A DNA stretch of 64,000 bases from Chlamydiales bacterium (lineage in GTDB: Bacteria > Chlamydiota > Chlamydiia > Chlamydiales > SM23-39): positions 31,539 to 95,538 of the forward strand of contig JAUXXF010000010.1 of NCBI GenBank assembly GCA_030681135.1, read 5' to 3'. This document shows, in pieces, positions 3,050-52,442 of the stretch. The first letter of the stretch is position 1. Every line of letters starts with the position of its first letter. The translations under genes and the position numbers were made by a program. The notes under the pieces are model-generated. The model was not told the origin of the DNA and made no database searches. It saw only the letters and a list, made by a program, of their open reading frames with translations.

Positions 3050-3109
3050 AGACCTCTTTCGAATGTAAGGATTCGTCGATTTTAAGAACCTTCATTTCAA
3101 AAGAGGTCT
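3050..3109. repeat. mini copy of the family-1 palindromic element
   Basis: AGACCTCTTTcgaatgtAAGGATTCGTCGATTTTAAGAACC...AAAGAGGTCT. It has the same terminal inverted repeat and the same AAGGnTTCGTCGATTTT core as the full copies. Confidence 0.7.
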
Positions 3110-7037: not shown

Positions 7038-7120
7038 GACCTCTTGCGTAGCTAAGGGGTCGTCGATTTTTGGGTTCTTTTGAGTCGAACTTCGTTAGCT
7101 TTTAGGGGGGGGGTAATAAT
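7038..7120. repeat. half copy (one arm) of the family-1 palindromic element
   Basis: AGACCTCTTgcgtagctAAGGGGTCGTCGATTTTTGGGTTCTTTTGAGTCGAACTTCGTTAGCTTTTAGGGGGGGGG. There is no matching second arm. It starts 3 nt after the MFS stop codon. Confidence 0.7.
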
Positions 7121-7461
7121 CTCCGCCAGAAGGGGTTGCAGCCATGCGCCCAGTCAACCTATAGGATAGGTGGGATCTTTTCCCAAGGAGGGCACGAGGG
7201 CCGTAGCTTGGCGTTAAAATCCCTTAAAAATAAACATTGTTGAAGAACAATCTATAGCCACAGTATCCCTAACGGCAGAGAAGAAGCCATTTTCTCCTTT
7301 AACTCCTATTTCTTGCAAGGAGATCTTGAGACTGCCGTTGAAAAGTGGTACAGCAAACAACTCTTTTAAAACGACTTTTAAGGAGCCGAGCTTCCTCCCA
7401 TGTCTACAGGCCTGGGCTTGCCGCCGTCAAAAAGAAGAAAATCAAATTGAGACAGCAGTTG

Positions 7462-8971: not shown

Positions 8972-9016
8972 AGAGGGTGTCTAAGAAGCTGTACTAAAAC
9001 CTAGCTTCTTAGAGAG
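8972..9016. repeat. mini-derivative of the family-1 element
   Basis: AGAGGGTGTCTAAGAAGCTgtactaaaacctAGCTTCTTAGAGAG. It abuts the sdhB stop codon and shares its AGAGGGTGTCTAAGAA terminus with copy 20780-20951. Confidence 0.7.
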
Positions 9017-20140: not shown

Positions 20141-20779
20141 ATGAAAAAGCGCAACTGCCTCTTATTAGCAATTGGGTTTCTTTTAGGATGCTCTCCTCTC
20201 AAGACATCGCCTCACGATGAAAAACATCAGCTTGAACTGACGTTGCATGAAGTACAAACAAATCTTGATGATCTGCGCCACGATGTCAATTGCTTTCAAA
20301 CCGAAATGCAAATCTTAGATGGGCGGATTAAATATTATGAAAACACTCTAAGCTCTCTCAAAAATCAGGATCTGCAAAACACGCAAGGCAAAGTAGATCA
20401 GTTAGTCCATCAAATTCACTCCCTCGAAAAAAAACTCAATGCCTTTGAAAAGTCGCACCAGACAGAAGAAAAGAATCTTGAGCAGCTTGCAACGCATGCT
20501 AATGAGACGACAGTTGCTTTTACTCAATTTAAGTATCGACTTGTTGAAATAGAGCAAAGTCTGGCTAGTCTGAGCAAACTGAAAACAAACCTTGAGTCTT
20601 TAGCAAACAACTTACGTCCTTCTTCAGAATCATTCAAAATTTACAAGGTCTCTCCAGGAGATTCGTTAAAAAAAATCGCAACGCTTCATAAAACAAGCGT
20701 AGAGAAACTCAAAACCTACAACCATTTACATGAAGATTTGATTGTCGTAGGACAAGAGCTAAAAATCCCACTCGGCTAA
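20141..20779 (+). CDS. coiled-coil lipoprotein with a C-terminal LysM domain
   Basis: MKKRNCLLLAIGFLLGC lipobox at the ATG at 20141 (the track ORF starts at a TTG at 20126). A long heptad-rich middle region. LysM: YKVSPGDSLKKIATLHKTSVEKLKTYNHL...GQELKIP. Confidence 0.8.
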   Translation: MKKRNCLLLAIGFLLGCSPLKTSPHDEKHQLELTLHEVQTNLDDLRHDVNCFQTEMQILDGRIKYYENTLSSLKNQDLQNTQGKVDQLVHQIHSLEKKLNAFEKSHQTEEKNLEQLATHANETTVAFTQFKYRLVEIEQSLASLSKLKTNLESLANNLRPSSESFKIYKVSPGDSLKKIATLHKTSVEKLKTYNHLHEDLIVVGQELKIPLG

Positions 20780-20951
20780 GAGGGTGTCTAAGAATTAAGG
20801 CTTCGTCGATTTTCGGGATGATTTTGGCCTATTTTCGATTCTTTTTACAGGGGTAGTATACGAAGTTGATACAACCCCCCCTGTAAAAAGAATCGAAAAT
20901 AGGCTCAAAAGCACCCGAAAATCGACAGAAGCTTAATTTTTAGACACCCTC
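20780..20951. repeat. full-length family-1 palindromic element
   Basis: GAGGGTGTCTAAGAATTAAGGCTTCGTCGATTTTCGGG...CAGGGG-loop-CCCCCCTG...CCCGAAAATCGACAGAAGCTTAATTTTTAGACACCCTC. It starts at the base after the LysM gene stop. Confidence 0.9.
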
Positions 20952-21085
20952 TAAAACATGTCCATAACCCTAGATTATGGACAGATTCTAAACAATAGTA
21001 CGCCTCCCTTTAAAAATTGATTGAAAAAAACATCAAAACGTGAAATCATTCGCGGCGTTTAGAGATATTGTTAAAAGGACGACAC

Positions 21086-22014: not shown

Positions 22015-22359
22015 ATGGACATGAAACGCTGGTATTTACTGGGATATTTAACTCTAGGGTGTGTTTCCACAACCTTTGGCTTGATCAATCCCCTGATTGC
22101 AGATATCTTAGATCCGCAAGATCGAAAAATATTACAAAGAAATAGCCCTCGAACAGTAGACCGAATCGATCGAAACGAGCCGCTGACCATCAATGACATC
22201 ATAAAACTAAGCCAAAATGGTATCCACGATGAAAGCATGATCGAATATATGCGAAATACCAATAGTTTTTACCATTTAAGCCAAACTCAAATCCGCAGAC
22301 TCCAAGATGCAGGTGTCAGTCAACGAGTTATTGATTTTATGGTCCGTTCTGGGCAATAA
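22015..22359 (+). CDS. small putative lipoprotein (114 aa) with two short internal repeats
   Basis: Lipobox LTLGC. LTINDIIKLSQNGIHDESMIEYM and LSQTQIRRLQDAGVSQRVIDFMV are two copies of one motif. Confidence 0.6.
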   Translation: MDMKRWYLLGYLTLGCVSTTFGLINPLIADILDPQDRKILQRNSPRTVDRIDRNEPLTINDIIKLSQNGIHDESMIEYMRNTNSFYHLSQTQIRRLQDAGVSQRVIDFMVRSGQ

Positions 22360-22361
22360 TT

Positions 22362-22534
22362 AGAGTCTGTCGTTGTATTGAGGCTTCGTCGATTTTGGGG
22401 ATTTTTTTGGCCGATTTTCGTTTCTTTTTTGGGGGATAGTATGCAGCCGTTGATACAATCCCCCAAAAAAGAAACGAAAATCGGTTCAAAAAAATCCCCA
22501 AAATCGACAGAAGCTCAATACAGCAACAGACTCT
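22362..22534. repeat. full-length family-1 palindromic element
   Basis: AGAGTCTGTCGTTGTATTGAGGCTTCGTCGATTTTGGGGA...GGGGG-loop-CCCCC...TCCCCAAAATCGACAGAAGCTCAATACAGCAACAGACTCT. Confidence 0.9.
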
Positions 22535-22598
22535 TATTGCTCAAAAAACCAAAAACCGGTACATCGTATATCGGCACACTTAAGCGTGTTTTACTTTT

Positions 22599-42525: not shown

Positions 42526-42975
42526 ATGAGAAAAAATAAATTTAGTGAAAAACTCAAAGAAGGAATATCTGTTCAAGAGCTGGAAGATTTTGCTCGCAAA
42601 TATTCTTCGGAGGTTTTTTCAGTTATCGCGCTCGTGATTGCAGCCATTTCTAGCATCTTCGATTTTTTTACAGGTCCCGGCTGGGCGATTCTTTTTATGA
42701 CAATAGGAGCTGTGTTGGGCATTTTCTTTCCCACGCCTGTAGATAAAGGGTTAAAGCAGCTCTATGAGTTTGTGTTTAAACAGGAAAAATCTACGCAGCT
42801 TATCCTCGGAGGCGTAAAAATTGTCATCGCCATATTTATCCCCTTTGTTCTTTTTGCGATCACAGGACTTTTAGCTGGAACCTCTTACCATTACTACACG
42901 AGAAGAGGCCAAACGGCCATGCACACAAAGCCTCACGAGCCCTTTCACGATAAAGGGGGAGAAGAGCACGATTAG
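42526..42975 (+). CDS. small membrane protein with paired hydrophobic lobes
   Basis: VFSVIALVIAAISSIFDFFTGPGWAILFMTIGAVLGIFF is a bilobed hydrophobic segment, and there is a second hydrophobic block. The ATG is at 42526 (the track start at 42520 is a TTG). Confidence 0.6.
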   Translation: MRKNKFSEKLKEGISVQELEDFARKYSSEVFSVIALVIAAISSIFDFFTGPGWAILFMTIGAVLGIFFPTPVDKGLKQLYEFVFKQEKSTQLILGGVKIVIAIFIPFVLFAITGLLAGTSYHYYTRRGQTAMHTKPHEPFHDKGGEEHD

Positions 42976-43022
42976 AGACTGTCCTAAAATCGATGAAGCC
43001 TAGGTTTTAGGGCAGCTTCTTA
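42974..43022. repeat. mini-derivative of the family-1 element between two convergent stop codons
   Basis: AGAGACTGTCCTAAAATCGATGAAGCCTAGGTTTTAGGGCAGCTTCTTAG. It contains the TCGATTTT core motif on the minus strand. Confidence 0.65.
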
Positions 43023-50180: not shown

Positions 50181-50253
50181 GGGGCGTTAGCTCAGTTGGT
50201 AGAGCGCAACAATGGCATTGTTGAGGCCATCGGTTCGACTCCGATACGCTCCA
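50181..50253 (+). tRNA. tRNA-Ala (anticodon GGC)
   Basis: Hand-folded cloverleaf: acceptor GGGGCGT/ACGCTCC with the G3:U70 Ala identity pair, D arm GCTC-AGTTGGTA-GAGC, anticodon arm CAACA-ATGGCAT-TGTTG, and T arm ATCGG-TTCGACT-CCGAT. CCA is not encoded. Confidence 0.92.
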
Positions 50254-50265
50254 TTCCCCCTTCTT

Positions 50266-50437
50266 AGAGCCTGTTCAAGATCTAAGACTTCGTCGATTTT
50301 CGGGATTATTTTGGCCAAATTTCGTTTCTTTTTCGGGGGGTCATATACTGGAATACGATATTACCCCCCGAAAAAGAAGCAAAATTTGGCTCAAAAGAAC
50401 CCGAAAATCGACAGAAGCTTAGATTTTAAACAGGCTC
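50266..50437. repeat. full-length family-1 palindromic element between tRNA-Ala and the rpoD stop codon
   Basis: AGAGCCTGTTCAAGATCTAAGACTTCGTCGATTTTCGGGA...CGGGGGG-loop-CCCCCCG...CCCGAAAATCGACAGAAGCTTAGATTTTAAACAGGCTC. It ends at the base before the rpoD stop. Confidence 0.9.
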
Positions 50438-52099
50438 CTATTCTCCTTCTAAAAGATCTAGAAATGCTTGAAGCTGTTTTGCCCGAGTTGGATGGCGCAT
50501 CTTACGGAGCGCTTTTGCTTCAATTTGACGCACTCGCTCGCGAGTCACTTTAAATCTGACTCCCACTTCTTCCAATGTTTTTGGTTTACCATCTAAAAGT
50601 CCAAAACGCTCAATTAAGACAGTTCTTTCCCGATCAGTCAATGTAGAAAGGACCTCGTTCATCTTATCTTTTAAAATCGCATAGCCGGTCGCTTCAGCAG
50701 GAGACTCTATCGCTGTGTCTTCTAAAAAGTCCCCAAATTGGCTCTCGCCACCGTCTCCCACTTCTGCTTGCAACGAGATCGGATGTTGGGCAATTTTATA
50801 AATCTCTCGAACACGCTCGGGAGTAAGACCTAATTCAGCAGCCAGCTCTTCAGGAGTTGGCTCTCTTCCTGTCTCCATCATTAATTTTTTAGCGCCGCGG
50901 AGCACTTTATTAATGGTTTCAATCATGTGAACAGGAATACGAATCGTCCGGGCCTGATCTGCAATAGCGCGGGTAACAGCCTGTCTAATCCACCAAGTGG
51001 CGTAGGTGGAAAATTTATATCCTCGGCGGTATTCAAATTTTTCAACCGCCTTCATGAGCCCCATATTTCCTTCCTGGATTAAATCCAAAAAGGAGAGGCC
51101 GCGGTTGGTATATTTCTTCGCAATCGAAATCACTAAGCGCAAATTCGATTCGACCATCTCTCTTTTTGCTTCTTGGCTTTTATCCATCCATCTTTGAAGC
51201 ATCCGGACGTCTTTTTTAAATTCGTCCAAAGATCTGCCAGCAGCCAATTCTCGCTTATAAAGCTTTCTTTTGGCGGCAGCTAATTTAGCAGCAGCAAACT
51301 TATTTTTTTCAGCCCGAGGGGTTAACTCCTGAATATCTTTTTCTAACAGTAAAAACCGATCATAGGCCGACAGGATGACTTCGCCAAAATCTTCAATAAT
51401 ATTATGTCTACAGCAAAATCTTCGTAAATACGCCTGAGCTCTGATCCGGCACTTTTCTGTCTCTTCTATTAAATGAGCTCTCTCTTCTCTTTTCAAATCA
51501 GGATTGCGTCCTCGGAAAAGCAAAGATTCTAACTGCTGATCCTCTTGTCTCATCAGCTCTGACAACCTAGGTAGCAAATTCATAAAATGAGCTTTGTCAG
51601 ACACTTCTTTTTCTGAAATGAGCTTGTCAAAACGGTCTTTACCAGAAATCAAATAGTAAGCAATCGAGATGGCTTCTCGGATGGAGTAGCGAAAGCGTAA
51701 AATAATTTTTTCAATCTGCATCTGAGCTTTTTCGATGCGCTTGGAGATCTCTACCTCTTCTTCCCTGGTCAGCAAGGGAACAGAGCCCATCTCTTTCAGA
51801 TACATGCGGACTGGGTCGTCTGAAGTCCCTTCGCTTCTTTTAGGGATTCCCTCCAGCTCTTTAGCTTCTTTTTTACGCTCTTTTTGCCGTTCAACCTCGG
51901 CTTGATTGAGCACCTGAATATCCATTCCGCTCAAATAGATCAGCACCTGATCGATTTGCTCAGGAGAATCAAAGGTCATCGGAAGGATTTCATTGATCTC
52001 TTCATAAGTAAGAAACCCCTGCTCTTTAGCAAGAGTCACAAGCTCTTCAATTTTTTGTTGATGCTGTGGATTGGTGGTAAAAGATGTTGTGCTGCTCAT
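50438..52099 (-). CDS. rpoD: primary RNA polymerase sigma factor (sigma-70 / chlamydial sigma-66)
   Basis: Regions 1.2-4.2 are present. [19 protein letters not shown] (region 2.4) and [28 protein letters not shown] (region 4.2). Confidence 0.97.
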
Positions 52100-52376: not shown

Positions 52377-52442
52377 CTTAGAAGCCAGGTTTTAGGACAG
52401 CTTCTTAGAGGGTGTTTACAAAGTAAGGGTTCGTTGATTTTC
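52377..52442. repeat. mini-derivative plus solo arm of the family-1 element next to the aroC stop
   Basis: CTTAGAAGCCAGGTTTTAGGACAGCTTCTTAGAGGGTGTTTACAAAGTAAGGGTTCGTTGATTTTC. Confidence 0.6.

Follow-up and report, generated by a model that had tools for sequence, protein, structure and literature searches.

The palindrome described here lies in a 64-kb stretch (64,000 nucleotides) of contig JAUXXF010000010.1, from a Chlamydiales bacterium of a groundwater metagenome; we refer to the whole of this stretch as the window. At positions 22363-22533, just beyond the end of an open reading frame (ORF; 22015-22359), the window carries an imperfect palindrome of 171 bp, the arms of which were first detected as 22358-22435 and 22461-22538. 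As a single strand it forms one long hairpin, with a folding energy of -78 kcal/mol for DNA and -121 kcal/mol for RNA (z about -20 relative to shuffled sequences). An original prediction, made from the sequence alone, had proposed that the two arms of this and similar copies share copy-specific substitutions, that the copies have a fixed orientation relative to transcription, and that they function at the RNA level; it overlooked their transposon nature and the target-site duplications that flank them. The copy is made up of the following parts.

22360-22362, + strand: left target-site duplication, TTA, directly after the TAA stop codon (22357-22359) of ORF 22015-22359.
22363-22384, + strand: left terminus, a terminal inverted repeat of the GAGTCTGTCG class, which is seen also in loci L100 and L110.
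22385-22435, + strand: core arm 1, of type 1, with TTCGTCGATTTT, ATT.TTTTGGCC, CGATTTTCG, a variable apical stem and a terminal G-run.
22436-22459, + strand: apical loop region (ATAGTATGCAGCCGTTGATACAAT), in forward orientation.
22460-22512, + strand: core arm 2, of type 2, with GG.TCAAAA containing an extra T and AAAATCGACAGAA containing an extra A.
22513-22533, + strand: right terminus, the reverse complement of the left one with 2 mismatches.
22534-22536, + strand: right target-site duplication, TTA.

The copy belongs to a family found in chlamydial genomes. A scan of species-representative genomes with the exact 20-nt pattern TCGTCGATTTT, a gap of 88-118 and AAAATCGAC matched at least 118 loci, and the element is present in about 90 of those listed; a hidden Markov model search of the 118 loci and the window returned at least 129 instances, at least 106 of them full length. 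The carriers are at least about 40 chlamydial metagenome-assembled genomes (MAGs), in which the element occupies unrelated sites, and at least 13 loci come from a single chromosome, OY970369.1; OY970179.1 is another complete chromosome with the element. Their labels read Chlamydiae, Chlamydiales, Rhabdochlamydiaceae, Parachlamydiaceae, Simkaniaceae and similar, or "Verrucomicrobia". The last probably represent chlamydiae that were classified by an older taxonomy: one such locus (L061:1990-3546) encodes a full TLC ATP/ADP transporter (707 bits), and older GTDB releases placed chlamydiae under Verrucomicrobiota, which together lead us to read these MAGs as chlamydial; the chromosomes concerned are of about 2.1 Mb. 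The window itself is syntenic with Rhabdochlamydiaceae and Chlamydiae loci. Scan matches in other phyla proved to be unrelated sequence, as did all four found in viral contigs, and a blastn search of plasmids returned no match to the element.

Full copies measure 165-183 bp and share one plan: a terminus of about 21 bp that comes in alternative classes, a core of about 125 bp conserved across genomes, and a loop of about 20 nt. Irregularities interrupt the core helix at four fixed points, three of them single-base bulges and the fourth an A.G mismatch. One A (in CGAC-A-GAA) and one T (in GGC-T-CAAAA) are extra bases of arm 2, and one A is extra in arm 1; the mismatch lies where GGGATTATTTT stands opposite AAAAGAACCC. 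Sequence is conserved in blocks (TTCGTCGATTTT, ATTATTTTGGCC, CGATTTTCGA, and the G-run with TAATATAC), between which lie stretches that are free but mirrored: terminus positions 9-16, a tetranucleotide (CGGG, GGGG, CTGG and others) and an apical stem of 10-12 bp. Two further features can be read from the sequence, either of which could bend the DNA or bind a protein: each arm has CGATTTTCG in two places at a distance of 22 bp, and A1T4 tracts at intervals of about 11 bp. In one locus (the L081:6134 region, minus strand) a second, unrelated palindrome (ACCCAAGTGGACTCAAAAGTT...) is nested within an element.

The ends of the element and the bases that flank them mark it as a MITE (miniature inverted-repeat transposable element). 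The original prediction had taken the outermost base pairs to be completely different between copies, though self-complementary within each. The self-complementarity holds, since the left terminus matches the reverse complement of the right one in nearly all copies; the complete difference does not, since the termini fall into recurrent classes common to several genomes (GACCTCTT, GAACCTATC, GAGACTGT, GAGTCTGTCG, GAGGGTGT, GAAGCTGTCC, GAGGTAGTTGC and GAGCCTGTT), every one of which begins with GA, and these are joined to the core at the identical base in many genomes. Copies with GAGA-type ends are flanked by identical 3-bp sequences in 14 of 20 cases (TAA seven times, and TGA, TTA or TCA). The other GAG and GAAG classes behave similarly, duplication of TNA being confined to GAG-, GAAG- and GAAA-type termini. 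At GACC ends the flanks are 2 bp, TA, and identical in 11 of 21 copies, while at GAAC ends 2-bp flanks are identical in 13 of 20, mostly as TT...TT or AA...AA, which marks them as direct duplications and not as extensions of the inverted repeat. Direct target duplications outside terminal inverted repeats identify the element as a MITE, and its other properties agree: it is small, non-coding and dispersed in many copies.

The target duplications also account for a positional habit. A stop codon lies within 5 nt of one end in 44 of about 96 copies family-wide, because the duplicated target is TNA and TAA or TGA can serve as such; in these gene-dense genomes the surviving insertions are often ones in or beside such stop codons, which brings copies up against genes.

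The same termini occur without the core, as mini hairpins of 19-35 bp, mostly with TNA flanks (L102:3455-3489, L107:953-970, L072:5762-5787, L059:5141-5175 and L006:5821-5840; in the window, 52381-52404 and 8985-9008). Intermediates that retain some core exist (window 3051-3108, L020:3626, L112:4794), and these, with the TNA flanks that the mini hairpins have kept, lead us to read the latter as products of internal deletion. Such termini-only hairpins could pass for REP-like repeats or terminators. The modules of the element have moreover been shuffled: an identical apical haplotype is found with three or four terminus classes, and one copy (L066:4751-4929) is a chimera, GACC-type on the left and GAAC-type on the right.

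The coupling of the two arms is already plain in the window. Among its four full copies 29 of the 63 pairs vary, 24 of them on both sides, and of 116 cells 102 are Watson-Crick and seven G.T; the same arm diverges between copies by 0.19-0.34, mismatch within copies being 0.016-0.095. The mirrored substitutions that had been claimed are thus real, and the arm strings quoted for the copies at 20780, 22362, 9782 and 50266 are all present. Aligning all copies arm by arm, the check that had been proposed, extends the result to the family. Alignment A1 comprises 102 full copies, for which RNAalifold predicts 64 pairs; the copies are related, so the cell counts below are of non-independent events. 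Changes are two-sided in 53 of the 64 pairs, compared with 36.1 ± 1.8 after shuffling and 28-35 when partners are slid by 1-3 columns; 96.3% of cells are paired, compared with 77.8% (shuffled) and 37-56% (slid); and the covariation score is 0.491, compared with 0.145 (shuffled) and at most 0.107 (slid). None of 500 shuffles attained any of the observed pairing values. Arms that diverge from each other as much as copies do, the outcome that would have spoken against mirroring, were not what we found: over 32 variable pairs, mismatch within copies is 8.4% and difference between copies 50.8%. At the apex the 102 copies display 86 distinct stem haplotypes. The arms are coupled far beyond chance.

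The time scale of this coupling can be approached by comparing each copy with its nearest neighbour. Where neighbours are at least 93% identical, there are 25 one-sided changes and 2 two-sided changes that keep the pair; at 88-93% identity the numbers are 46 and 43, and at 80-88% identity 69 and 82. By our estimate, which was not computed, independent mutation at such divergences should make only a few per cent of the changes two-sided. The comparison, made without an in-situ control, suggests that recent change is one-sided decay and that mirrored change builds up over the longer scale that separates source lineages.

The arms are nevertheless not identical, and the prediction of two arm types was well founded: type 1 carries TTC-GTCGATTTT and TTTTG-GCC where type 2 carries TTCTGTCGATTTT and TTTTGAGCC. 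Among 105 copies the outer bulge is canonical in 95, lost in four and reversed in two, and the middle module is canonical in 79, of type 1 in both arms in six, of type 2 in both arms in two, and flipped in one. The loop is forward in 73 copies and inverted in at least 14. Two copies on one long-read chromosome, in L011 and L059, differ by inversion of the apical segment, an event by which a G.T also became an A.C. Symmetrised copies make up about 8-10% of the total, and together with the flipped module and the inverted loops they indicate that copying from arm to arm and inversion do occur at the DNA level, as a minority outcome. The choice originally offered, between selection for the hairpin and templating of one arm by the other, was accordingly a fair one, there being both coupling beyond chance and traces of copying and inversion.

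Besides the copy at 22363-22533 the window contains three full copies and five remnants (four full copies and five remnants in total).

20780-20951, + strand: second full copy, with GAGGGTGTC-type termini; target-site duplication TAA at 20777-20779 and 20952-20954.
9783-9952, - strand: third full copy, with GACCTCTT-type termini; left flank TA.
50267-50437, + strand: fourth full copy, with GAGCCTGTT-type termini; flanks TTA (50264-50266) and CTA (50438-50440).
7038-7121, + strand: left half-copy with a GACCTCTT terminus and a flipped middle module, ending at the loop, after the stop codon of an MFS transporter gene.
3051-3108, + strand: 58-bp internal-deletion derivative (GACCTCTT termini and TTCGTCGATTTT, the remainder deleted), upstream of mnmG.
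42975-43019, + strand: 45-bp deletion derivative exactly between two convergent ORFs, both TTA flanks feeding their stop codons.
52381-52441, + strand: remnants, namely a 24-bp GAAGC-type mini hairpin (52381-52404), TTA, and the leftmost part, as far as TTCGTTGATTTT, of a GAGGGTGT-type copy (52408-52441).
8973-9016, + strand: pile of terminal remnants (GAGGGTGTC, TAA, a 24-bp GAAGCTGT mini hairpin, TTA, GAGAG), just ahead of the sdhB stop codon.

The third full copy sits between sdhA (stop codon 9956-9958) and sdhB (start codon 9776-9778). The fourth has as neighbours a tRNA-Ala gene (50181-50253, + strand) and a convergent sigma-70 gene on the minus strand, which reads into arm 2 and whose stop codon adjoins that type-2 arm. 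At four sites in the window the target duplication is itself a stop codon: TAA at 20777-20779 ends a LysM-domain gene, the TAG stop at 42973-42975 is made of the duplicated TA and the first G of the element, TTA at 43020-43022 is a minus-strand stop, and CTA at 50438-50440 is the stop of the sigma-70 gene. Only spurious ORFs overlap the copies. A match to TTCGTCGATTTT at 11220 falls within the sdhA ORF and was dismissed as chance. The outward AAGAGGTC of the GACCTCTT terminus that lies 4 nt before the sdhB ATG (9776-9790) resembles a Shine-Dalgarno sequence, but such a role was dropped as a general function: gene starts were called within 14 nt of only 4 of 42 GACCTCTT-type ends, with no excess over other classes, and the placement is probably incidental. 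The window also holds a separate inverted repeat (62716-62751 / 62842-62877; 36-nt arms, 89% complementary, 90 nt apart), which has no sequence kinship to the hairpin family.

Certain intergenic regions have received elements in several genomes. In three genomes the region upstream of the same OmpR-type response regulator has been a site for elements or their remnants (window 20780-21067, L045:342-540 and L112:3860-5400), with related terminus classes in two of the three and a flipped middle module in L045. When such shared regions (L016/L061/L114 and window/L045/L112) were compared as orthologous or empty sites, the terminus classes differed or divergence was excessive; the insertions are independent.

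We consider it rather probable that the element is a non-autonomous MITE, widespread in chlamydia-like bacteria, and that the coupling of its arms results from a hairpin constraint acting on the lineages that proliferate. The element inserts by duplicating a short target, TNA at GAG-type ends and 2 bp at GACC- and GAAC-type ends. Its transposing or replicating form would probably need to be a folded hairpin or cruciform, on which the bulges could be recognition marks, and only lineages with complementary arms would go on yielding new copies. Recombination in the conserved blocks reshuffles the nested modules, and copying between arms and inversion intervene occasionally, both processes having left the traces seen among the copies; after insertion, copies would decay by one-sided changes, as the nearest-neighbour comparison suggests.

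Several observations weigh against this reading. About 0.9 Mb of element loci yielded no transposase gene and no autonomous insertion sequence (IS) with matching termini, and no transposase was found among the window's Pfam-scanned ORFs (20 of 69 scanned). DDE transposases use double-stranded ends, and a need for a full-length hairpin is unexplained by IS5 biochemistry. The exact pattern by which copies were ascertained biases the sample towards well-kept ones. Two-sided changes between neighbour copies comprise 64 transitions and 63 transversions, a parity that fits arm-to-arm copying at least as well as stepwise compensation. Finally, copies with imperfect target duplications have 1.3 arm mismatches each and those with perfect duplications 2.0, which is the opposite of what simple decay after insertion predicts.

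Other searches for a mobilizing enzyme gave a similar result. Termini paired at distances of 30-4000 bp gave only derivatives and chance pairs, with no parent IS; all-against-all clustering of the locus ORFs gave no multi-copy transposase cluster; the ORFs beside solo termini in L048 are, judging by eye, presumably murD and mraY; and the ORF beside a solo terminus in L034 had no Pfam match. We infer a transposase acting in trans, none having been found in these loci. The 3-bp TNA duplication and the GA/GAG termini resemble those of eukaryotic PIF/Harbinger elements and, within the IS5 family, of IS1031, IS427 and ISL2, and an IS5-family-like enzyme would be our guess, made from the length of the duplication and from the termini by comparison with ISfinder tables. 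As a separate observation, an ORF of 1091 aa in the window (55786-59061, + strand) consists of repeated transposase-type helix-turn-helix (HTH) domains (HTH_21 twice, HTH_32, HTH_Tnp_Tc3_2). A catalytic domain was not detected in it, and the HTH array may have been domesticated or have degenerated.

Arm-to-arm copying of DNA might by itself explain the coupling, whether by template switching at the quasi-palindrome or by gene conversion or recombination between the inverted arms; drift would then be mirrored automatically, and no selection for the hairpin need be invoked. We hold this to be possible but on the doubtful side. Such copying has evidently overwritten the asymmetry of some elements, making the middle module type 1 throughout in six and type 2 in two and removing the outer bulge from four, and the flipped middle module, the inverted loops and the L011/L059 inversion are of the same stamp. 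The transition/transversion parity is as expected of a process with no wobble route, many two-sided changes fall in adjacent runs of two or three pairs, and copies with imperfect duplications show no extra arm mismatches. Left unselected, however, copying would erase the four irregularities, yet about 75-90% of copies are canonical across about 40 genomes. The preponderance of one-sided changes (25:2) at 93% identity or more implies moreover that correction in situ is not fast, and the types of mismatch resemble plain decay, core-helix G.T (49) and A.C (41) being balanced in the element sense.

A more ambitious version of the hairpin constraint can be put forward, though only tentatively, and we rate it as improbable. 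The core would be a phylum-wide fold recognised by its shape (three bulges, one mismatch and the doubled CGATTTTCG), read by a protein on single-stranded hairpin or cruciform DNA and captured repeatedly by different transposase-specific termini. If this is true, the free but mirrored stretches would reflect selection at the level of structure, as in attC sites, and the element would be a case of a DDE-type MITE that cannot do without an intermediate of folded DNA (or RNA).

The original prediction favoured a function at the RNA level. On such a reading the hairpin would act in the 3' untranslated region or between genes, as mRNA stabiliser, RNase III site or terminator, and selection on the host would maintain both pairing and orientation. 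The frequent position of copies just after stop codons and the very stable RNA fold would suit this, and the type-1 arm was said to come first in the direction of transcription in all four full copies. It does so in the three tandem ones; the fourth, next to the convergent sigma-70 gene, is ambiguous, and three of three or four of four co-oriented copies is in either case not significant. Family-wide, orientation scored by simple longest-ORF gene calls, admittedly crude, gives 25 co-oriented and 16 anti-oriented copies in tandem contexts (p=0.21), with 17 copies in convergent and 16 in divergent contexts. Among copies within 5 nt of a stop codon arm 1 comes first in 26 and arm 2 in 18 (p=0.29), and within 30 nt, the window excluded, in 29 and 20. 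A fixed orientation is not supported, 16-18 copies being opposite to it, although a weak bias near 60:40 may exist. The mismatches point the same way: in the core helix G.U is not in excess of A.C in the transcript sense (18 vs 14, p=0.6), and the parity of transitions and transversions does not favour the G.U route typical of RNA stems. A larger G.T/A.C imbalance over all helices comes from the outer helix, where counts are unreliable since different terminus classes are aligned together, and from the G-run boundary column.

Nor do particular RNA functions find much support. Two copies scanned contained no terminator-like stem followed by a T-run; the T-runs, read from the sequence, lie in the 5' arm on either strand, so that the G+C-rich stem and following T/U run of an intrinsic terminator are not what the element presents. 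The sdhA-sdhB copy must be read through if sdhB is co-transcribed. A search of the window against Rfam 15 at the gathering threshold matched only tRNA-Ala, and the element at E up to 10 matched only generic miRNA-precursor hairpins, far below threshold. The core does appear, with several terminus classes, in metatranscriptome contigs, which indicates presence only, not ends or strand, and could reflect carry-over of DNA. RNA-level compensatory changes have been published for the Bacillus repeat bcr1 (PMC3184786). With position after stop codons already explained by TNA duplication, we judge an RNA role to be unlikely; transcripts may still fold, and nothing in the data requires that they function. 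The inference from orientation to RNA should not be carried forward.

The free-standing mini hairpins (L102:3455-3489, L107:953-970, L072:5762-5787 and window 52381-52404 among them) might instead suggest that the outer 20 bp were there first, as short palindromes of REP-like or terminator type, and that the core was inserted into their loops, but this is very improbable: the duplicated target lies outside the outer modules and not at the core boundary, the mini hairpins share the TNA flanks, some intermediates have kept a portion of the core, and many genomes have the same outer classes attached to the core at an identical position.

Among known systems, the IS5 family (IS1031, IS427, ISL2) and PIF/Harbinger with its Tourist-like MITEs resemble the element in the 3-bp TNA/TWA duplication and GA/GAG termini. 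The element departs from the IS5 family in that its GACC and GAAC classes duplicate 2 bp, a full-length hairpin is no known IS5 requirement, and neither a transposase gene nor a full-length IS bounded by such termini was found in its loci. Arm-to-arm conversion is known from the palindromes of the Y chromosome, and quasi-palindromes in E. coli are mutation hotspots subject to correction by template switching. Mirrored changes, loss of asymmetry in some copies and inversion of the spacer are common to these and to our element, which differs in keeping its four asymmetries in most copies, where unselected homogenisation should remove them.

Integron attC sites, IS200/IS605 ends and REP hairpins, recognised by shape as single-stranded DNA, offer a resemblance in possible mode only: variable sequence with conserved structure, conserved extrahelical bases by which one strand differs from the other, and a site that is often just after a stop codon. 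An attC site is variable at its centre, whereas the element is conserved in its interior and varies at its termini; it lacks the outer R''/R' boxes (GTTRRRY), which in integrons go with a cassette context and a nearby integrase. It has no GTAG/CGTC tag either, and in its loci there is no integrase or RAYT gene close by. Target-site duplications, which the element has, are not produced by tyrosine-recombinase or HUH systems. REP/BIME repeats mobilised by RAYT, as characterised in PMC3733652, are 20-40 bp long, tagged with GTAG/CGTC and make no duplication, while the element is about 170 bp, with GA termini and duplications.

The closest likeness is to the long-hairpin MITEs of bacteria (Correia/NEMIS in Neisseria, ERIC in enterobacteria, RUP in pneumococcus, bcr1 in the Bacillus cereus group, Nezha in cyanobacteria and QMITEs in Coxiella), which are likewise non-coding, intergenic, of 100-200 bp and palindromic throughout; they too end in inverted repeats, duplicate short targets and are scattered in many copies. 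In bcr1, too, compensatory changes keep the stem (PMC3184786), and reviews describe long-hairpin MITEs as transcribed together with adjacent genes (PMC2229807, PMC10969869). The present family differs from them in host range, that of chlamydia-like bacteria, and in sequence, no similarity having been found in Rfam, in a literature string search or in a search of plasmids. The core string was absent from any relevant context in that literature search, and full-text searches of a literature library found no chlamydial MITE; a 2024 review of prokaryotic MITEs does not mention chlamydia, and the Waddlia genome paper mentions only unspecified repeats of more than 200 bp. Environmental chlamydiae are known to carry repeats, and naming this family, apparently undescribed although of a known kind, would aid the annotation of chlamydial MAGs, where copies fall on stop codons, between the genes of an operon (sdhA/sdhB) and at assembly-prone palindromes. 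Its less ordinary features are two: one conserved asymmetric core combined with several terminus classes that give duplications of 2 or 3 bp, and conservation across a phylum-level group, about 40 species-level genomes and not a single genus. Some 100 copies and 53 covarying pairs, along with the fixed bulges and the variants that have become symmetrised or inverted in nature, also make it an unusually clean data set on the co-evolution of MITE arms.

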